Part shown: piece after piece, positions 40,547-53,149 of the stretch
How positions within the stretch are numbered: the first letter of the stretch is position 1
Layout: each line of letters begins with the position of its first letter
Assembly (NCBI GenBank): GCA_963668175.1
Contig: OY764159.1
Location: 64,001-128,000 of the forward strand
Source of the DNA: Syntrophales bacterium
Lineage (GTDB): Bacteria > Desulfobacterota > Syntrophia > Syntrophales > PHBD01
DNA length: 64,000 bases
Direction: 5' to 3'
The notes under the pieces: generated by a model
The model's database searches: none
What the model was told of the DNA's origin: nothing
The model's input: the letters and a program-made list of their open reading frames with translations, nothing else
Position numbers and translations under genes: made by a program

Positions 40547-41374
40547 TTATCCTACATAAGACGGCAGGTCCCCAGGCTCCTTGCCTTGAAAACTGCAAGC
40601 GATATTGCAGGTTTTACAGGGCCCCTTGAGTGCCGGCAGAGGCGGCTCTCCTTTGATACCGTCTATGAAGTCAAGACATCGATTCACCGTTTCTTCGTCG
40701 CCGTCTACGATGAGCGAAACGGACCCTTCCGCGCCGCCATACCCCCCCGACGTAAAATGAACGGTATGCAGCCCGAAAAGGTTCTGGATGGCCTCTATTT
40801 CCGTCACGACGCTGCCGTCGGCCACACAGGCCATGCCGACGAGGGCGCCGATGGAGCGTCCCAGGGCAAGTCGGCCGCCATACCGGGCGGCTTCCTCCAC
40901 GGAGGGGATCAATTTTTCCAACCCTACCGGATAGATGGTCCTGATGCCCTGCGCTTTCAGCGCCATGTAGAACTGGCCCATCGTTCCGCCCACCGGGCTG
41001 GCCATGACCACGCCGACATTCCCCAGCGGGTCGACGGCATTGGCCCCTTTCAAGAGAATGTCGCCCTTGGTGAGGTTGTTGAGAACCTCCCCCGGTTCAA
41101 CGGCCAGAATCTCGCCCTTATGAAAGGTAACGGGCCTTGATCTCAATTCCTGGCTCAGGACGCAATAGAAACCCCTGATAACCTGACCTGCCATATATCT
41201 TTCCTTCTCGGTCTTTTCTCCGAGAAGTTCCTCGAGGATATAGGCGTTGGTCGAGCCGCGGCCAATGAGAAGATATCCGTTGTCCTTAGCCTTTTGTACT
41301 TCATCCAGACCCGCCACGGCCTTGCCGATCAGCCTTTTCGATTCCGACGGAGTCAATGTAAACAGCGCTTGCAT
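40547..41374 (-). CDS. Hypothetical protein, possibly RpiA/NagB/CoA-transferase-like fold
   Basis: AAAGGAGG before MQALFTLTPSESKRLI; GRGST, KGANAVD, C-terminal CxxCxxxC. Confidence 0.75.
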   Translation of the reverse strand: MQALFTLTPSESKRLIGKAVAGLDEVQKAKDNGYLLIGRGSTNAYILEELLGEKTEKERYMAGQVIRGFYCVLSQELRSRPVTFHKGEILAVEPGEVLNNLTKGDILLKGANAVDPLGNVGVVMASPVGGTMGQFYMALKAQGIRTIYPVGLEKLIPSVEEAARYGGRLALGRSIGALVGMACVADGSVVTEIEAIQNLFGLHTVHFTSGGYGGAEGSVSLIVDGDEETVNRCLDFIDGIKGEPPLPALKGPCKTCNIACSFQGKEPGDLPSYVG

Positions 41375-41605
41375 TGCCAGCCTCCTTTCGGGAGTCATGT
41401 CCTCCCTTTCCGCGATATATGAATAATGTTTCTTCCAATCCACCGCCCTTTTTTATCGATCCGGTTGCTTCTCCCTATTCAGATATATCATACCATGCCT
41501 CCTCGACGACCCCAACGGACTTTTTCATTTAAAACAAAATTTGAAAGTTATTCGTTAACGGATATGGCCGTGCGGCGTCACGGTCGACATTTTTTCAAGT
41601 TATGG

Positions 41606-45491: not shown

Positions 45492-45504
45492 AAGGGGTTA
45501 ATAT

Positions 45505-46455
45505 ATGGCTGGAGTTTGGATTATAGCGGAAACGAAGGAACAGGCGCAGGCGCTGCTCGGCATCGGCAAGGTCACAGCGGCCGCGATGGCAACGGCGGTG
45601 ACCGTGTTGCTTCCTAAAGATCGAGGAGCATCCTCGGATTTTTTCTCTCTTGGGGCGGACCAGGTATTCTTTTTGCCCATCCTTCCCCAAGACCAATCCT
45701 TCGACGCCTATCTCCCCGTCATGGCGGCCGAGGCGAAGAATGAAGACCCGGATCTCATCCTGGTTGCCGCAACGGCCAGAGGCAGGGACCTGGCCGCTCG
45801 ACTTGCGGCCAGGCTGGATACCGGTCTTTGCAGTGCCTGCATCGGCATGCATTACGACAGCTCAAGCAAGACCCTGGAAATGGAGCGCCTGGCTTACGGA
45901 GGAGCCGCCATTCAGAAAGTCGCCTGCACGACCCGTCCTTTTATCGCAACAATCACGCCCGGCACCTTTGAGGCGGCGAAGCCGGCAGAACCCAGGGAAG
46001 GCGCCGTAAAGGAACTGCCCGCACCGCCTCCTTCGGCGGTCAAAATCGCGGGAATAAAGGCCAAGGAACGGACAGGCCGGGATATCGCGGCAGCGAAGGT
46101 CGTGGTTTGCGTCGGCAGGGGCCTGCAAAAAGAGGAAGACCTCGCTCTGGCCAGGGAGCTGGCGGAATTGCTGGAGGGCGAAATCGGATGCACCCGGCCG
46201 ATCTCGGAAGAGATGCATTGGCTTCCGGAAGACCTCTGCATCGGGCTGTCCGGCATTCAGGTCAAACCCGACCTCTATATCGGACTGGGCGTCTCCGGTC
46301 AGATCCAGCATGTCACCGGTATACGCAATGCAAAAGTCATCTGCGCCGTCAATCAGGATGAGCACGCCCCGATCTTCGACGCCGCCGATTTCGGTATTGT
46401 CGGCGATCTCTACGATATTGTCCCGAAACTTATTGCCGAGTTGAGGAAACGCTGA
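45505..46455 (+). CDS. etfA: Electron transfer flavoprotein alpha subunit (FixB type)
   Basis: LAARLAARL, RLAYGG, VGRG, GVSGQIQH, APIFDAADFGIVGD. Confidence 0.93.
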   Translation: MAGVWIIAETKEQAQALLGIGKVTAAAMATAVTVLLPKDRGASSDFFSLGADQVFFLPILPQDQSFDAYLPVMAAEAKNEDPDLILVAATARGRDLAARLAARLDTGLCSACIGMHYDSSSKTLEMERLAYGGAAIQKVACTTRPFIATITPGTFEAAKPAEPREGAVKELPAPPPSAVKIAGIKAKERTGRDIAAAKVVVCVGRGLQKEEDLALARELAELLEGEIGCTRPISEEMHWLPEDLCIGLSGIQVKPDLYIGLGVSGQIQHVTGIRNAKVICAVNQDEHAPIFDAADFGIVGDLYDIVPKLIAELRKR

Positions 46456-46587
46456 AAGGACAGGCGGTCTTCATAACCGATCAATAGATGTATTCGTTTT
46501 ATATGGGGATGTTTCGAACGGCGGATGATACGGGATCGAAATCCGGTCAGGGTGCAGCCTGAATTCCAGAGATAATACCGTATGATT

Positions 46588-46631
46588 CGAGGCTGCGATA
46601 AGCAGCTCGCAAGGGCTTCTTTGCAGCCTCG
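46588..46631. terminator. Hairpin between etfA and the convergent small ORF
   Basis: CGAGGCTGCGA...TTGCAGCCTCG followed by TTCTCTATTT on the plus strand. Confidence 0.5.
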
Positions 46632-46635
46632 TTCT

Positions 46636-46824
46636 CTATTTCTGCCGGAAGACGGAAGCAGTCGACTCCATCGCCGCAGCAACAGCGAACTGCGCACAGG
46701 ATACGCCGAAACCCGTACACGCCGCCTGCGCATTCACCGCCACATCAATAACCCTTGCCGTCTTTGCCTCCGGCAGGGGCTGCTCCAACCTATCCAGGAA
46801 GCTGTCGAAATCACTCAACACCAT
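46636..46824 (-). CDS. Small hypothetical protein (62 aa)
   Basis: Strong GAGGGAGGGG ribosome binding site before the ATG; structured leader; no recognisable family. Confidence 0.55.
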   Translation of the reverse strand: MVLSDFDSFLDRLEQPLPEAKTARVIDVAVNAQAACTGFGVSCAQFAVAAAMESTASVFRQK

Positions 46825-46964
46825 CCGCCCCTCCCTCTAACATTGCATCACATTTTATTTAAGAGGAGGGGTGTCCCCCAACACAGCCCTCCCGCATGCC
46901 GATTTCTGCGTATAACAAGTTTACGTGTTCGTCAATGGATTTTTCAAAGACGGTTTTCTTTCGA

Positions 46965-47639
46965 TTATGAAACCCGGAAGCGATACTCCAGAATCGCCTT
47001 GAGATTCGCCGTTTCGATACGGTGAATGGCATCGAAATAGGGCCAGATGTCTCCTACCCACTTACGGTCCGTGCGATCGCGCCCGGTGGAGATATATTCC
47101 GGAACGTTCGTCACGCTCCGATCATAATAGGGATGCTTGCAGTTGGTCCATAACATGACGGTGCCCGGCTTGCGGAGCGTCGGCATGGCATCGAGAAAAC
47201 GAAAATGATACCTCATCCAGAGTTCCTCGCCCTGATCCCAGGCGCAGGGATAATCGACGACACGGCTGTCGGGATAGGCCTCTGCCCGTATGTAGATGGG
47301 GGTGTCCTTGCCGAGGAATTCCTCACCCTTGTACAGGCCGCCGCCGATGTGCTTAAAACGGCGCAGACTGAACGTCCACTCCTCCAAGCTGTAAACGTTC
47401 GCTGCGTATTCGAAGGCCATATCGACCGGGCATTGAATATACTCGCCGATGTGGCTGTACTTGCCGAAGATTTCCTCGTGCTGGTAAGATTCTTTCGTCA
47501 GCTCCTGAAGCTTCGCCGATATATCGGGAATGCCATGGTCTTCACAGGAATAAAGACCGGGGATATCTCTCGAAGCGATGCCATTGGTAACAAGAGCATC
47601 TCGGCTCCACGGCCCCAAACTGTCGCGCGTCTTTTCCAT
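46965..47639 (-). CDS. SRPBCC-fold cyclase, NzsI/CqsB2 carbazole synthase-like
   Basis: LEEWTFS, VDYPCAWDQGEELWM, WTNCKHPYYD, WVGDIW, NLKAILEYR; AAGGAGG ribosome binding site. Confidence 0.82.
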   Translation of the reverse strand: MEKTRDSLGPWSRDALVTNGIASRDIPGLYSCEDHGIPDISAKLQELTKESYQHEEIFGKYSHIGEYIQCPVDMAFEYAANVYSLEEWTFSLRRFKHIGGGLYKGEEFLGKDTPIYIRAEAYPDSRVVDYPCAWDQGEELWMRYHFRFLDAMPTLRKPGTVMLWTNCKHPYYDRSVTNVPEYISTGRDRTDRKWVGDIWPYFDAIHRIETANLKAILEYRFRVS

Positions 47640-47709
47640 GATTCCTCCTTAAAATCCATACAATGTAAATTTATTAAGATCGCCGATGCGATTTTTCCGT
47701 TTACAACGC

Positions 47710-48711
47710 CTATATCCATCGTATTGCCAGGGCACTCACGAAGTCCCCGCCATTGGAGAAGGTCCCCATGGCAATCCGGTCGCCATGATGTACTTTACCC
47801 TTTTCCAGGGCATCGGCCAGGGTGACGGGCAGAGAACCCTGGAAGAGATTCCCGTATTGCTCAAGCGTATCATGAACGCGGGGGGCATCGATACCTATCC
47901 GATCCCGCCATTCCCTGATAAAATGCGTATTGGGCTGATGCGTCAAGAGCAGTGCTATATCGTCGGCCGACAGGCCGGCCCCGGCAAGACAGTTTTTAAC
48001 AGCCTGTGGGACAAGCTCCAGGGCGTTTTTGCCGATCGTCTGCACCAGTTCGGCCGAGAAATGTACCATGATCGGGCCGGAACCCCTTTCCCAGTAATTC
48101 AAAGAGGCGGCCTGAACACTGTCGGGCTCAAATACGAAGAGGCCGTAATTTTCGCCGCAGGAGCGCTCGTAACTGCCAAGAAAGCTCGATTCCCCTTTAG
48201 ACAGAAGCGTGGCGGACGCCCCATCGCCTAGGACCCAGGATAATCTCGATTTTTGAAATTCGGGAAGCCTGGAGATGAAATTGGTCACGGTTACAACCGC
48301 CACCGTCCTGTAAAGGCCCGCTTCGATGAACGCCCGAGCCGTATTGAGCATGGACAGATACGAACTGCAACCGGTATCGATATTGATGACGGATGCCCCC
48401 TTTGCACCTACCCGGTGCTGGATGGCGGGTCCGATGCTGGGCCAGAGATAGTCGCTGAAGATGCAGGAATAGAGGATCAGGTCGACATCTTGCGGACCGG
48501 TGCCGGTGCGGTCAAGAAGGCGTTCAAGCACCCTGGCCCCCAGGTCTGATGAAAGGTATTCCGGCGAAGCAAAGCGTCTCTGCAAGACGCCCTTAAAAAA
48601 AAGATCGTTGTCCAGTTCGCCGCCATTTTCGACATTCGATACCAGTTTTTCGTTATCGACAATGCGCTCCGGCATGAAATTGACAACGTCGATGATTTGC
48701 GCACCTTTCAT
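47710..48711 (-). CDS. FabH-like ketosynthase III (NzsJ/CqsB1-like)
   Basis: Cys-His-Asn triad (DTGCSSY, THQPN, YGNLF), GDGA. Confidence 0.88.
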   Translation of the reverse strand: MKGAQIIDVVNFMPERIVDNEKLVSNVENGGELDNDLFFKGVLQRRFASPEYLSSDLGARVLERLLDRTGTGPQDVDLILYSCIFSDYLWPSIGPAIQHRVGAKGASVINIDTGCSSYLSMLNTARAFIEAGLYRTVAVVTVTNFISRLPEFQKSRLSWVLGDGASATLLSKGESSFLGSYERSCGENYGLFVFEPDSVQAASLNYWERGSGPIMVHFSAELVQTIGKNALELVPQAVKNCLAGAGLSADDIALLLTHQPNTHFIREWRDRIGIDAPRVHDTLEQYGNLFQGSLPVTLADALEKGKVHHGDRIAMGTFSNGGDFVSALAIRWI

Positions 48712-48840
48712 GACTTGGATCCTTCATCATCCTCCGACGGATACTGTCCTGCCCCCCTCAAGGGCGATATTCACGTATTGGAAGGGGCAATAATTCCGGT
48801 TATTTATATCGGCCGAAGCAGACAGCCGAATCTCTTCGCA

Positions 48841-50580
48841 TCACAGAGGCTCCGTTTCCGGATCATCCGGCAGAAACGGCGTAAAGGGCGGCATTTCTTC
48901 GCAGGACAACCTCAGTTCCAGAACGCCCGGTATGGCGGTGTTTTCGTGATAGCTCTTAAGTTCCCTGCGCAGTTCGGACAGAGTTCCCGCACTGCCGACC
49001 CAGAGCCTCCCGGCATCGCCGAATCCTCTGACGGTCTGGGCGATATCTACCGGCGCATAGCGGACACACTCCAGTCTCGATTCGAAAAACAACTGCTGAC
49101 GCAGCGCACACATCCCGTGCATACCGTTGTTGAAAATAACATAGAGAATCGGGAGCCTGTATTCCACAGCCGTATGGATTTCAAAACCGGATATGAGAAA
49201 AGCGCCGTCACCTGCAAAAACGATGGTCCTGGCCCCTCGATCCGAACCCATCTGGGCGCCGACAGCGGCCGCGATGGCGTAACCCATCCCTCCCATGCCC
49301 AGGGCAATGATCGAACTGGCCCCGGACGGCAGCCGGGTCATGTGTATCGCCGCCGTGGCGCAGTTTCCCGCATCATGGATCAGATGACCGTTCACCGGCA
49401 GGTAATCCTGCAGACACCTGATCGCCTCGCTTTGCTTAAGCGGCGGCGAGTCGGCTGCAGCATGACGGTTATTTACATCAGGGGACGGGACAGGAAGAGG
49501 CTTGAATATCCGTCGTGTGTAGCCGGCAATCGGTTTGACTTTCAGTGGCGTTCGCTCCTGCAGCATGGATAGGACCTGAAAGACTTCACCCGCGTCGGCT
49601 TCAATGGCGATATCGGGAGTGGTGATCCGAGCGATTTGACCGATATCGACATTGACAACGGCGATTCTCTTTTTTTTAAGAACGACGCCGAGAGGCTGCC
49701 GTGTCATGAAATTGAGGCCCGATCCGACGACGACGAGCAGGTCCGCTCGCTCTTTCAAATAGGCATGAACGGACGGATGTCCGGCGACGCCCAGACTGCC
49801 CAGATAGAGAGGATCGTCGTTGGCGAATTCGGCGCGTCCGGAAAGGGTCGTCACCACGGGTAATCCGGCTGCCCGGGCGAAATCGGCCACGGCCTGCGGC
49901 TTGCTGCAGCGTCTCACCCCTTGACCGAAAACGATGACAGGATTTGCGGCCCGGCCGATTTCATCAAAGAGAGGGCGAACGGTCTCTTCCGACAACTTCG
50001 CCGGACGGACTTCGCCGCTCAGTTTTTCAACCCACCCGTCGGGGACGGGATCGACTTCCTTATCGAAGATATCGCGCGGCAGGAGTAAGGCCGCAGGCCC
50101 CGGCCGTCCGGAAAGAGCGGCCTTAACGGCCTCGGTCATGTGGCTCCAGAAGGATGCCGGATTCGATATTCTGGCCGTGTACTTGGTCACGGAACGCCAT
50201 AGCCCCAGGCTGTCTACCGATCGTCCGACCCCGGAAGACTCCTGGAACGAACCGGTTCCGTCCAATGCTGACGGAGGCTGCCCGATCAATGCCAGGATGG
50301 GAACCGACTCTGCATAGGACTCGGCAACGCCGGCAATGAGGTTCATCATGCCGCCGCCCGACGTCGAGCAACAGACGCCCAATGTCCTGTGCACCCGCGC
50401 GCGGCAGTCGGCCATGAACCCCGCCCCGTCTTCGCTTTTGGCCATGACGGACTTCAGTCTCCCTTGTCCCAGCCGGTGGATGGCGTCATGGAGATGTTCG
50501 ATGTTCGCGCCGCTGACGCCAAACACGTATCTCACATCCAGGGCAATTAAGGCTTCGACCAGAGCGTCACTCAGCATCAT
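48841..50580 (-). CDS. ThDP-dependent carboligase (acetolactate synthase superfamily, NzsH/CqsB3/ScyA-like)
   Basis: FGVSGANIE, SEDGAGFMAD, TSGGGMMN, FQES, GMGGMGY, GDGAF...FNNGMHGMC. Confidence 0.88.
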   Translation of the reverse strand: MMLSDALVEALIALDVRYVFGVSGANIEHLHDAIHRLGQGRLKSVMAKSEDGAGFMADCRARVHRTLGVCCSTSGGGMMNLIAGVAESYAESVPILALIGQPPSALDGTGSFQESSGVGRSVDSLGLWRSVTKYTARISNPASFWSHMTEAVKAALSGRPGPAALLLPRDIFDKEVDPVPDGWVEKLSGEVRPAKLSEETVRPLFDEIGRAANPVIVFGQGVRRCSKPQAVADFARAAGLPVVTTLSGRAEFANDDPLYLGSLGVAGHPSVHAYLKERADLLVVVGSGLNFMTRQPLGVVLKKKRIAVVNVDIGQIARITTPDIAIEADAGEVFQVLSMLQERTPLKVKPIAGYTRRIFKPLPVPSPDVNNRHAAADSPPLKQSEAIRCLQDYLPVNGHLIHDAGNCATAAIHMTRLPSGASSIIALGMGGMGYAIAAAVGAQMGSDRGARTIVFAGDGAFLISGFEIHTAVEYRLPILYVIFNNGMHGMCALRQQLFFESRLECVRYAPVDIAQTVRGFGDAGRLWVGSAGTLSELRRELKSYHENTAIPGVLELRLSCEEMPPFTPFLPDDPETEPL

Positions 50581-50752
50581 AGGGTATCAGGTAAATTCCT
50601 CCCCCTGCTCACCGGGCAACTCGCCCGGATTTCTTGCTGCGTCTTTTCCGGCACCAGTGTCCCGCCGGAAAACAAAAAATCACCTCGCCCCCGATTCTGT
50701 CCGTGGGTGCCCATTTATTCAACATTATTCATTAAATTTTCACTGCCGCGGC

Positions 50753-50781
50753 AGTATATGGGGTGCCGTTCCGTGTGTCAA
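50753..50781 (-). promoter_or_regulatory. Sigma70 promoter of the ThDP/KSIII/SRPBCC cassette
   Basis: TTGACA-17 nt-TATACT; palindrome ACTGCCGCGGCAGT (50742-50755) overlaps the -10/+1 region. Confidence 0.72.
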
Positions 50782-50859
50782 CCATTTTCAACGGTGGGAT
50801 GTTTTGCAGATAAAGCACTTTAAGCGAAAACCGGATGATTTTATGAACCTTCCGGAAAG

Positions 50860-50902
50860 AAAAGGATCTCTGCGGCTTATCAAGCGGCAGAGATCCTTTT
50901 TT
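50860..50902. terminator. Bidirectional intrinsic terminator downstream of the cytochrome c gene
   Basis: AAAAGGATCTCTGC...GCAGAGATCCTTTTTT. Confidence 0.8.
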
Positions 50903-50973
50903 CCAGCGGAAGACAGCGGTACACGAGGCATCCAAATCGCAATTCACCGGCACGAGGGGTGATGCCCCATGGA

Positions 50974-51351
50974 TCACGGAACTTTCAAGCCAAAATGATG
51001 GCACTTGGCGCAGGCGTCTTCTGAGGGCTTATGGGCATGATGACATTGCTCGCAAGCCATTTCGCCGAGATGCGTATCATGCGGATTCGGTCTTACGGCA
51101 GCCGTTTTCATCGCCAGCTTTTCCGCATCGCCGTGACAAGAGAGACACTTGGCTGAAGGCACGGAATTCTTTGGGGGCGTTTCCTGATGGCAGGCATCGC
51201 ATTTGAGCCCCTTCGCTTTATGCTTGTCGGCAAGCATCATCTTGTCCTGGGCCATAATCATAAGCGGAAGGCCTGCAAGAACAAAACAAATGATCAGGAA
51301 AGCGGCAACCAACGCATTCCTGCTTTTTCGGGTAACCGGTATGTTCATCAT
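50974..51351 (-). CDS. Periplasmic tetraheme cytochrome c (flavocytochrome heme subunit)
   Basis: Signal peptide; four CxxCH motifs (CDACH, CLSCH, CEQCH, CAKCH); NPH motif. Confidence 0.92.
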   Translation of the reverse strand: MMNIPVTRKSRNALVAAFLIICFVLAGLPLMIMAQDKMMLADKHKAKGLKCDACHQETPPKNSVPSAKCLSCHGDAEKLAMKTAAVRPNPHDTHLGEMACEQCHHAHKPSEDACAKCHHFGLKVP

Positions 51352-51373
51352 ATCAACCTCCCATACCGTTATG

Positions 51374-51413
51374 AAAAAGCGGAGAGAAGGGTCTTCCCTC
51401 GTTCTCCGCTTTC
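51374..51413 (-). terminator. Terminator-like hairpin between the flavoprotein and cytochrome genes
   Basis: Minus strand: GAAAGCGGAGA..GAGGG-AAGA-CCCUU..UCUCCGCUUUUU. Confidence 0.55.
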
Positions 51414-51424
51414 GTATTTATCTG

Positions 51425-53149
51425 CTATTTCCAAGGCTTCAAAGCTGCGGCATTCTTTCCGGCAATGCGCCCGAAGACAATCAATTCGGTCAGATTTCCG
51501 CCTCCTTGATAGACGAATTTCAGTGCGGAAGATATCTCGCCGGCCGTAAATAACCTGGGAATGGGCTTGCCTTCCCAAGTGAGGACCTCTCTTTGCGCAT
51601 TCGCCATGATGCCGCCTTTGGTATTCGGCCCACCGGCAACAAGAGGCAGGGCATAGAAAGGAGGCTTTTCGACGGGTTTCAGCGTTCCGGCCCTGCGGCT
51701 GAAATCTTCATCCTTCCCTTTCTTGCAGAAATCGTTGAAGCGGGCAACGGTCTTGCTCAGGTTGGATGCATCCATCATATTCCTGTTCTCTTTTTGATTC
51801 TTAATCTTCTCGGCCAGGGCCTCCAGGGTGTCCGCCTGCAGAATCCAGCCGCGATTTATCGCGTCCATATTATCCTTGGTCCAGGGGACGAAACCGAAAC
51901 CGGCCGTCGAAATACCGAGGGACGTTATGGTGACATTGGCCCGTAACGTTTCGTCAAAGATCATCCAGCTCGGCATCCGCGGGTATATCAGGTTGGTGAT
52001 GTCGAATTTGACCGCTTCCTTATAGAAGAAGTAACGGCTTGGATCGGTTGTAATCAAAGTCTCCGCGGCATAACGGTTGCCGTAGTTGTCGACGACGATG
52101 GAGTTGGCCCCTCCGACGGAATCGGTGATGATTCCCATTTTCAAACCATAACGGCGGATGGGAACGACCATGATCATCCGGGATGCCGCCTTGCCCACTT
52201 TTGCCAACCCGGCACCGATCTTCATGGCCATCGCAATACCGTCACCGGTATTTTCCGGGCTTCCGTAAAAAGCCCATCCTTCGATTCCCGGTCCTTCCAG
52301 GAAAGCCTTTCGCATAGGCACGCTGTATTCATAACCGCCGGTCGTAATGATAACGGCCCTTTTGGCCTTACATGTCACCGTACCACCGTTTTTCTTTTGG
52401 CCGACCACACCGAGGATCTCTCCATCATCGTTTGCGATCAGACGAATGGCCGGCGTTTCCCACAGAATATTGACTTTTCGCTTTTCAACCGCCTCTCTCA
52501 GTACGGTAAAAAACGCCTCGCCGTTCATTTTTTGGTTCTTCGGCAAATCCTTCGTGGGGACATCGAAACTGGCCTTGTCCGTAAACGAACTTCCGTATAC
52601 GCGATACTTGCACTCTTTGGCGCCCGGGAAATTGGGGAAAGCGGCGCCCGAGAAGCGGGAAAAGGCCACGACATTGAAAGTCGGGTCCAGCTTCTTTAAA
52701 TAGTCGACATTCTCCGGAGAAAGATCGGCCCAGGCCTGCGCCAGGCCATCGGAAAATTCCGGCTGTTCGCCTTCCAGTTTGGCCGGGATATTCTCTCCGC
52801 TGAACATGGCTTTGGCATATGCCTTCAGCGCCTCCTTGTTTCCCGTCGGATCGGGGCAATGGAAGATACCGCCGGACATACGTGTATTGTTGATCAGATT
52901 GTTCTGAGGTTGCTTTTCCAGGATTATAACCTTCGCACCAGCGTCGGCAGCTTCGATAGCCGCACAAGCCCCTGCCCCGCCGAATCCCAGGATCACGACA
53001 TCGGCTTCTTTATCCCATTTCTTGGGAATCCCTGCCGATTCGGCAGTTCCCGTCCCAAGACCCGTCAAGGCCAGTGCACCCGTACCGAGAGCTACGCCCT
53101 TGATCAGATTTCTCCTGGTTACTCCTTTTTCCGAGATTTCTTTAGCCAT
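51425..53149 (-). CDS. Tat-exported FAD_binding_2 flavoprotein (flavocytochrome c flavin subunit)
   Basis: Tat motif TRRNLIK, DVVILGFGGAG, TRMSGG, TGGY, NTGDG, NTKGG, IPRLFTAGE, FGRIAG. Confidence 0.9.
   Translation of the reverse strand: MAKEISEKGVTRRNLIKGVALGTGALALTGLGTGTAESAGIPKKWDKEADVVILGFGGAGACAAIEAADAGAKVIILEKQPQNNLINNTRMSGGIFHCPDPTGNKEALKAYAKAMFSGENIPAKLEGEQPEFSDGLAQAWADLSPENVDYLKKLDPTFNVVAFSRFSGAAFPNFPGAKECKYRVYGSSFTDKASFDVPTKDLPKNQKMNGEAFFTVLREAVEKRKVNILWETPAIRLIANDDGEILGVVGQKKNGGTVTCKAKRAVIITTGGYEYSVPMRKAFLEGPGIEGWAFYGSPENTGDGIAMAMKIGAGLAKVGKAASRMIMVVPIRRYGLKMGIITDSVGGANSIVVDNYGNRYAAETLITTDPSRYFFYKEAVKFDITNLIYPRMPSWMIFDETLRANVTITSLGISTAGFGFVPWTKDNMDAINRGWILQADTLEALAEKIKNQKENRNMMDASNLSKTVARFNDFCKKGKDEDFSRRAGTLKPVEKPPFYALPLVAGGPNTKGGIMANAQREVLTWEGKPIPRLFTAGEISSALKFVYQGGGNLTELIVFGRIAGKNAAALKPWK

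Follow-up and report, generated by a model that had tools for sequence, protein, structure and literature searches.

It was asked whether a compact locus in a Syntrophales bacterium could specify the nucleus of a carbazole alkaloid. The locus lies in a 64,000-nt window, which is the whole stretch of DNA analysed here. Three intact, co-oriented open reading frames were located on the minus strand at 46965..50580, in agreement with the first-pass annotation, in the order of a ThDP-dependent carboligase of the NzsH/CqsB3/CbzD type (48841..50580, 579 aa), a KSIII-like condensing enzyme (KS) of the NzsJ/CqsB1/CbzF type (47710..48711, 333 aa) and a carbazole synthase (cyclase) of the CqsB2/NzsI type (46965..47639, 224 aa), with intergenic gaps of 129 and 70 nt, respectively. 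The ribosome-binding site of the cyclase gene (TAAGGAGG, 47644..47651, minus strand) was read directly from the sequence. A sigma-70-like promoter candidate, TTGACA-17-TATACT (11/12; 50753..50781, minus strand), lies some 170 nt upstream of the ThDP gene; it was the best, and well placed, of the four promoter-like sites found, a count not enriched over the 3.5 in shuffled sequences. Promoter-like sites were present at 4/4 Syntrophales copies of the trio, and visual inspection showed TTGACA hexamers ahead of the orthologue in loci L001, L002 and L017.

The trio is flanked by fixC, fixX, an acyl-CoA dehydrogenase gene and etfBA on one side and by genes for a tetraheme cytochrome c and a flavoprotein on the other. 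Inspection of these flanking genes revealed no ACP, second KASIII, aminotransferase, prenyltransferase or oxygenase adjoining the trio, as had largely been noted before, and the nine ACP-type and 19 class I/II aminotransferase matches of the host genome were all away from it. Functional links to neighbouring genes were rejected: the flavocytochrome and ETF genes do not adjoin the trio in L001, L002 or L017, and a FAS-like operon, which adjoins the trio in L017, lies about 0.66 Mb off in the host (measured round the contig ends) and is not near the trio in L001 or L002, while the L017 trio has its own promoter-like site. Neither flank was duplicated in the genome, apart from one local hairpin, and the search for structured RNA in 45500-52000 gave two matches only, both far under the gathering score. 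The description of the host as a strict anaerobe is supported only indirectly: its order also holds Syntrophus MAGs and no COX1 match (heme-copper oxidase) was obtained in the 100% complete genome, but a cytochrome bd oxidase is encoded. The host also carries putative hydrogenase motifs.

The ThDP enzyme has the full set of three TPP Pfam domains, and its E50, GDG at 457-459 and NN at 484-485 were invariant in a 10-row alignment; C115, H258 and N288 of the KS were likewise invariant in an 11-row alignment, so that the intact ThDP motif with its glutamate and the intact ketosynthase triad reported earlier were both confirmed. The best PDB match of the ThDP enzyme was BbmA (E 3e-70), and its identity was 59.4% over 581 positions to CbzD and 56.4% to the ThDP gene product of the cqs-type locus L097, where the ThDP and KS genes neighbour a 98%-CqsB2 gene. 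The KS was 60.5% identical to CbzF over 329 positions and 51.4% to the KS of L097, and its model (pLDDT 94) adopted the FabH/PqsC fold. By sequence, the ThDP enzyme groups with the CbzD/CqsB3 type, apart from AHAS, the NzsH/CqsB3 class being defined by the use of indole-3-pyruvate and pyruvate, and the KS groups with CbzF/CqsB1, not with FabH. The identities of the trio to characterised cores (51-60%) are in the range between known clusters themselves (CbzD/NzsH, 376/582; CbzF/NzsJ, 183/328; PMC11610953).

The cyclase gave no Pfam match, and the motifs CAWDQGEELWM, WTNCKHPYYD and NLKAILEYR were all present in it. Its similarity to CqsB2/NzsI, on which the first-pass annotation had made its reading depend, was established by an E value of 8e-79 against PDB 6ipv (CqsB2) and by 56.6% identity to P0086, a sequence identical to CqsB2, over 212 aa. 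In a 90-row alignment, E107, Y144, Y172, H206 and E209 share columns with the catalytic residues Glu105, Tyr144, Tyr172, His206 and Glu209 of CqsB2 (PMC7466098), i.e. five of five. The neighbours of these residues differ, being Y201, D203 and I205 versus V, H and G in CqsB2.

Residues lining the KS pocket were considered with respect to the acyl donor. W90, at the tunnel-gating position, and F194 are common to the window KS and CbzF, while the cqs-type KS, which uses 3-hydroxybutyryl thioesters, has S90 and V194. Trp90 was found in 98/120 database rows, as the family default, and also in Streptomyces clusters to which no product was assigned here, and it therefore discriminates the donor weakly. 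W90 aligns with a Phe of FabH, probably the counterpart of Phe87 in E. coli. Phe87 of E. coli FabH shuts the tunnel to longer chains (PMC12625853), and the use of acetyl-CoA by CbzF is a proposal only (PMC11610953). Since the pocket of the window KS is like that of CbzF, not that of CqsB1, acetyl-CoA is the likelier donor, and the 3-hydroxybutyryl unit named in the first-pass annotation is not the best supported one. Provided that the trio does build a carbazole nucleus, acetyl would be the rather probable donor, 3-hydroxybutyryl or another short acyl a distinctly less probable one and an aryl or long acyl an unlikely one.

The trio was found in 4/339 genomes of the host's class, in three different chromosomal settings, and in 1/391 genomes sampled from the phylum, that one being the host; the class search also gave two weak hits to the cyclase (G177 and G312), which were about 50 aa with stops and were discarded as spurious. 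Matches to both the ThDP enzyme and the KS were also carried by 39 of the 42 cyclase-bearing genome loci fetched, and the grouping of the three genes is thus not due to chance. In the trees, all three proteins fell with the CqsB/Cbz branch, and the clade of Syntrophales and cyanobacteria had 100/100 support in the concatenated tree. The cyanobacterial copies were nested inside the Syntrophales ones in the quick trees of the KS and the ThDP enzyme (SH-aLRT 95 and 90, respectively); the Syntrophales copies held together in the cyclase tree (92) and the concatenated tree (69/93), the best of the latter keeping the five rows together. It is conceivable, although improbable, that the cyanobacterial clusters came from the anaerobes, as the nesting in the KS and ThDP trees would suggest. 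The trio is under purifying selection: the comparison of L001 with L002 gave a dN/dS of 0.07-0.17, and the window has diverged from its relatives nearly to saturation at synonymous sites, with the frames still open. Its composition was more typical of the host than that of about 90% of 421 genome windows (GC3 0.64-0.67).

The nearest relatives of the trio outside its own lineage are cyanobacterial clusters with trp genes and the tryptophan dehydrogenase ScyB. A ScyB-type enzyme was found in 7/8 intact cyanobacterial sister loci (above the NCBIfam cut-off in L004 and L008, called by BLAST in the remainder) and trpE in 5/8, and this gene content points to indole-3-pyruvate as the substrate of the trio. 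The host has trpE, trpC, trpB and trpA over cut-off; no dedicated aminotransferase or ScyB orthologue was found in it, the best matches being 24% identical to ScyB and 29-33% to the cluster aminotransferases. An indolepyruvate:ferredoxin oxidoreductase, over cut-off in 3/4 cassette genomes, could drain indole-3-pyruvate.

We consider it quite probable, from the sequence comparisons, that the trio is a stand-alone functional operon for the carbazole nucleus, with a 1-alkyl-2-methylcarbazole-3,4-diol as the product. A host aminotransferase would convert tryptophan to indole-3-pyruvate. By orthology, the KS would be acylated at Cys115 by a thioester of the host, to judge from the pocket most likely acetyl-CoA, and would carry out the condensation with CO2 loss. 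The cyclase, as its five conserved residues suggest, would then close and aromatise ring A; in the known system, this enzyme needs no cofactor and the carbazole C4-OH derives from water (PMC7466098), as would also apply here. None of the proposed steps would require O2. The product would most likely be 3,4-dihydroxy-1,2-dimethylcarbazole, i.e. the carbazomycin core, present as a catechol under anoxia and as an ortho-quinone by oxidation in air, and this known core is more likely than a new scaffold, the first-pass annotation having allowed for a new product. Since the known enzyme set is present with which Streptomyces convert tryptophan into carbazole alkaloids, the host probably makes a small redox-active carbazole.

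The carbazomycin cluster of Streptomyces luteosporeus (cbz, with CbzD, CbzE and CbzF) is, like the window, without ACP or NzsF, acetyl-CoA being its proposed donor (PMC11610953), so that the missing ACP is not special; it adds an aminotransferase, an SDR, an FAD protein and an O-methyltransferase, none of which is beside the window trio, and its host is an aerobic actinomycete. The carquinostatin (cqs) and neocarazostatin (nzs) clusters have the gene order KS-cyclase-ThDP, versus ThDP-KS-cyclase in the window, and add ACP, KASIII, aminotransferase, prenyltransferase and IPP isomerase (PMC7466098). The clustered NzsH/I/J trio constitutes the carbazole core cassette, and homologous clusters have been predicted in Scytonema tolypothrichoides and Sorangium cellulosum (PMC7466098); the same clustering was found in the window. 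The trio of Scytonema shares its gene order and 67/71/80% identity with that of the window and belongs to the sister clade of the latter. Unlike the window trio, the Scytonema and Sorangium clusters carry precursor-supply and tailoring genes; their hosts are oxygenic or aerobic, and no literature link from these clusters to products was found. Three further systems are likened by their descriptions. The NzsH homologues Cbei2730 and CbeiHKI805_0381 of Clostridium beijerinckii (sattazolins) form indole acyloins in an anaerobe, the acyloin core only, and the accessible part of the report does not mention a carbazole ring (PMC9822442). ScyA of scytonemin biosynthesis has the ThDP acyloin step in common with the window, as does the cyanobacterin route (CybE, CybF), in which a second condensing enzyme follows with a CoA ester (PMC12395478). 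This furanolide route is set apart by its gene content as far as the accessible text describes it, with an ammonia-lyase, a CoA ligase and no CqsB2-type cyclase, and its enzymes convert indole substrates poorly, at about 1.2% (PMC12395478); the window has the cyclase, and the lyase and ligase are unlinked.

The generic annotations of homologues, 'acetolactate synthase' and '3-oxoacyl-ACP synthase III', would suit ordinary primary metabolism, with an acetolactate synthase and FabH beside an unrelated hypothetical protein. This reading is effectively refuted by sequence: the ThDP enzyme scored 251 bits against the TIGR00118 cut-off of 538, under every NCBIfam acetolactate synthase cut-off shown, and the KS 144 bits against that of TIGR00747 (FabH), 292, while the acetolactate synthase-like and KSIII genes that the host has separately are just 23-29% identical to those of the trio and branch outside. 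The first-pass annotation was therefore right not to regard the ThDP enzyme as a plain acetolactate synthase. A passenger cassette that is silent or was acquired recently, with no current function, would fit the rarity and the three different insertion sites, but is very improbable in view of the intact frames and active sites, the purifying selection, the host-typical composition and the promoter-like sites at every Syntrophales copy.

Two other readings concern the product. It appears unlikely that the trio acts on indole-3-pyruvate but yields something else, namely a carbazole that is mono-oxygenated or not aromatised, a shunt product (indole acyloin or ester), or a carbazole completed by host enzymes not linked to the trio, such as a methyltransferase or reductase. 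Unless cyclisation is efficient, the product of the KS undergoes spontaneous rearrangement, and there are mono-oxygenated carbazoles, of unknown hydride source (PMC7466098); the cyclase pocket neighbours are unlike those of CqsB2, but its catalytic residues are all kept. The host also encodes a protein related, at 46% identity, to the UbiG-like methyltransferase found in the cyanobacterial clusters; at that level, this gene is missing from the three remaining cassette genomes, where the best match has an E value of 3e-16 or weaker. It was found in the cassette-free G048, and is hence not linked to the trio. An aromatic CoA ester donor (benzoyl or cinnamoyl type), leading to a hyellazole-like carbazole with a 1-aryl or 1-styryl group, seems as improbable as the passenger cassette. 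The sister loci L008, L015 and L016 have an intact aromatic ammonia-lyase and a CoA ligase, L012 has the ligase, and the host has an aromatic ammonia-lyase gene near a CoA ligase gene elsewhere in its genome; however, the lyase family occurs in 169/339 class genomes, which makes its co-occurrence with the trio uninformative. The KSs of L008, L012, L015 and L016 are all C90/Y145/S159/L192/G194, whereas the window KS, W90/F145/W159/F192/F194, equals those of four cyanobacterial clusters without intact lyase. A ring-cleavage hydrolase was over cut-off in 0/4 cassette genomes and a benzoate-CoA ligase in 1/4, not the host, and on these grounds together with the KS pocket the benzoyl-CoA donor was dropped.

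Returning to the carbazole operon, an antioxidant or shuttle role of its product is speculation. It is improbable, although conceivable, that the catechol/ortho-quinone pair serves a long-resident Syntrophales lineage as a syntrophic electron shuttle (diffusible or membrane) or an oxygen buffer, with periplasmic cytochromes, for instance the adjoining flavocytochrome pair, recycling it. Carbazole enzymology and chemistry and the ACP-less core (carbazomycin cluster) are already known; bacterial carbazoles of this kind are on record for aerobic actinomycetes, and clusters have been predicted for one myxobacterium and one cyanobacterium (PMC7466098). The anaerobic host lineage, for which no report of a carbazole core was found in the literature searched, the stand-alone three-gene form and the natural KS-cyclase fusions, which occur in relatives (P0201 is one such protein), are new. 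The oxygen-free chemistry makes such a pathway plausible in anaerobes, and for syntrophic anaerobes, a group whose small-molecule chemistry is barely known, a conserved copy of the whole core under selection would mean an additional alkaloid pathway. With just three genes, the trio offers a clean test of the core-only product and of the host thioester taken; the difference in KS pocket between clusters with and without a linked lyase gives a handle on donor specificity, and the fusions give one on the hand-over of the unstable intermediate.

Beside the trio lies a 62-aa ORF with no family assigned (46636..46824, minus strand). It had no tblastn match in L001, L002, L017 or L057 and no ESM Atlas match at >=0.9; weak relatives occur in 4/150 other genomes, none of which has the cassette. 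It is probably a passenger outside the core, with its own ribosome-binding site and promoter-like site, and a 69% identical ORF occupies the equivalent position in the metagenome locus L056.

The three minus-strand genes of the window, encoding a ThDP-dependent enzyme (48841-50580, 579 aa), a ketosynthase (KS) of the KSIII-like type (47710-48711, 333 aa) and a cyclase (46965-47639, 224 aa), form a genuine carbazole core that is intact and under selection. The open reading frames were intact and co-oriented where the first-pass annotation had placed them, and the active-site motifs on which it had relied were confirmed, with E50, GDG457-459 and NN484-485 invariant across 10 aligned ThDP proteins and the triad C115, H258 and N288 invariant across 11 aligned KS proteins. 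All three TPP domains and both KSIII domains were detected with Pfam, to which the cyclase gave no match. In independently assembled contigs of sequencing run X1 (possibly the source sample), the trio was connected at one flank to the etf genes and at the opposite flank to the cytochrome genes, with 0 differences, and it is therefore not a misassembly. A sigma-70-like site (11/12 match) about 170 nt upstream of the trio was taken as a candidate only, because the scan returned 4 sites against 3.5 expected.

The proposed kinship of the cyclase with CqsB2 was borne out by its match to the solved CqsB2 (E 8e-79) and by 56.6% identity over 212 aa to database protein P0086, which is identical to CqsB2. 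The residues named as catalytic in CqsB2 (Glu105, Tyr144, Tyr172, His206 and Glu209; review PMC7466098) were aligned with E107, Y144, Y172, H206 and E209 of the window protein (5/5). The ThDP enzyme and the KS were 59.4% and 60.5% identical to CbzD and CbzF, respectively, and 56.4% and 51.4% identical to the proteins encoded next to a 98%-CqsB2 gene of Streptomyces locus L097 (used as stand-ins for NzsH, NzsJ, CqsB1 and CqsB3), the same range as between known carbazole clusters. ThDP and KS matches were also present in 39 of the 42 fetched genome loci holding the cyclase. A plain acetolactate synthase, raised earlier as the alternative, does not describe the ThDP enzyme, which scored far below the acetolactate synthase cut-off; the KS scored far below that of FabH, and separate, distant copies of both families are carried by the host.

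In three single-protein trees (quick trees on subsets of loci), the window proteins fell within the CqsB/Cbz branch; a second group, mostly from actinomycetes, was separate and lay at a greater distance. The Syntrophales and cyanobacterial copies were grouped at 100/100 in a concatenated tree of 23 rows, and Syntrophales monophyly was supported at 69/93, so transfer between them may have run in either direction. The dN/dS values between the Syntrophales loci L001 and L002 were 0.147, 0.174 and 0.069 for the three genes, synonymous sites between the window and its relatives were near saturation (pS 0.67-0.81; pN 0.06-0.24) and the cassette composition was typical of the host; the cassette is therefore old in the lineage and under selection, though patchy. 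Of the 339 genomes of the class, four carried the cyclase, and these same four the ThDP orthologue; two further cyclase matches, short and with internal stops, were dropped, and a phylum sample of 391 genomes gave no match except the host. The other carriers were two Syntrophus MAGs of the same order as the host and one Syntrophaceae MAG of the same family. The four copies occupied three unrelated chromosomal settings, namely between etfA and a flavocytochrome pair (host), after a purF-like gene (L001, L002) and after a FAS-like operon (L017), with no tailoring genes adjoining any of them. Fragments of all three genes (~94% identity) were recovered from wetland metagenome run X6. In the distant group (actinomycete loci L019-L042), the gene order was ThDP-cyclase-KS and Asn replaced His258 of the KS; one of its members, S. 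diacarni, is described as a chlocarbazomycin producer (PMC10100901).

Syntrophales are obligate anaerobes. The host genome (a single 4.57 Mb contig, 100% complete) gave no COX1 match, one FeFe- and two NiFe-hydrogenase motif matches, and encodes a cytochrome bd oxidase. [quoted passage not shown] The cyclase reaction is cofactor-free, the C4 oxygen comes from water and the catechol oxidation is spontaneous, according to PMC7466098. No step would require O2, so an anaerobic host would be no paradox. A redox-shuttle role of the product, as first suggested, is possible and receives no support from the gene neighbourhood. Natural in-frame KS-cyclase fusions were found in at least three separate lineages: P0201 (L057:3-1595; 583 aa; 71% and 85% identity to the window proteins; its cluster has three full-length members), P0310 (567 aa) and a 662-codon frame in Streptomyces locus L100 (4197-6182). 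They fit the view, put forward in PMC7466098, that KS and cyclase work in concert on an unstable intermediate. The P0201 linker resembles a read-through intergenic region, and cyclase homologues P0094, P0101, P0103 and P0106 carry an extra N-terminal region of ~100 aa of unassigned kind.

For the acyl donor, KS pocket positions 90, 145, 159, 192 and 194 were picked by eye. W90/F145/W159/F192/F194 was shared by the window KS, the other Syntrophales copies (L001, L002, L017) and the four cyanobacterial clusters in which no intact ammonia-lyase is present; the residues are W90/F145/R159/L192/F194 in CbzF, S90 and V194 in cqs-type KS, and C90/Y145/S159/L192/G194 in the four cyanobacterial clusters that include a CoA ligase (3/4 also with an intact ammonia-lyase). 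The W90 column holds Phe in FabH of B. subtilis, S. aureus and Burkholderia, presumably at the position of E. coli FabH Phe87. E. coli FabH is restricted to acetyl-CoA by Phe87 (PMC12625853), and acetyl-CoA is itself a proposal for CbzF (PMC11610953). Trp90 is the family default (98/120 rows), which counts against it as donor evidence, and benzoate degradation markers were not found in the host genome. Acetyl-CoA is, from these residues, our best guess, and would give 3,4-dihydroxy-1,2-dimethylcarbazole, the unmethylated carbazomycin core. Hyellazole is a 1-phenyl carbazole. Cyanobacterial clusters L008, L015 and L016 (and L012) combine a distinct small-residue KS pocket with genes for an aromatic ammonia-lyase, a CoA ligase, ScyB and tryptophan synthesis (trp), and are candidate producers of carbazoles with a 1-aryl or 1-styryl group, hyellazole being an example. 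In L003, L004 and L014, only lyase fragments are left and the pocket has Trp90.

A ScyB-type tryptophan dehydrogenase was carried by 7 of the 8 intact cyanobacterial sister loci and trpE by 5, with trpC, trpA and DAHP synthase additionally in L008 (the L012 sequence stops 2 kb beyond the cyclase), and this gene content points to indole-3-pyruvate as the probable substrate across the Syntrophales and cyanobacterial clade. The host makes tryptophan, its trp genes lying ~52 kb from the trio, and its genome gave 19 class I/II aminotransferase matches, with no close ScyB or cluster-type aminotransferase. NzsH homologues from Clostridium beijerinckii produce indole acyloins (PMC9822442), and the carbazomycin cluster lacks an ACP (PMC11610953). 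The trio has been listed in S. cattleya, Sorangium cellulosum and Scytonema tolypothrichoides in PMC7466098, whose accessible text mentions neither 'anaerob' nor 'Syntroph'. No report of it in Syntrophales or another anaerobe was found among the papers searched, though the primary papers and their supplements may list such homologues. The cassette is of interest because its host is an anaerobic syntroph, because it consists of three bare genes and because it is easy to test.

Other loci were also recorded. A 62-aa ORF (46636-46824, minus strand) contains a conserved pair of Cys six residues apart and matched nothing in Pfam or Atlas; the host genome has a paralogue at G000:C1:3692720, and weak relatives occur in 4 of the 150 other genomes. 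A 298-aa protein (40547-41443, minus strand), divergent from the fixC-etf operon, had no match in Pfam or NCBIfam. A tetraheme cytochrome c3 and a Tat-type flavoprotein of a fumarate reductase-like family (50974-53149, minus strand) scored below all specific cut-offs and are predicted to form a periplasmic reductase, its substrate unassigned. The FAS-like operon, conserved in both genomes (L017:172-7035 and G000:C1:4017577-4024496), encodes acyl-CoA dehydrogenase, KSIII, two FabA/Z-like dehydratases, FabG, FabF, ACP, acyltransferase and PPTase. The region G000:C1:4453770-4463713 (L102) holds an aromatic ammonia-lyase and, close to it, genes for a ketosynthase, an ACP, an ABC transporter, a crotonase and a CoA ligase; the lyase family occurs in 169 of the 339 class genomes. 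Three ACPs with several ketosynthase-like and radical-SAM-like ORFs, recognized by eye at G000:C1:720450-737668 (L054 reaches 734999), possibly represent an unusual lipid pathway.
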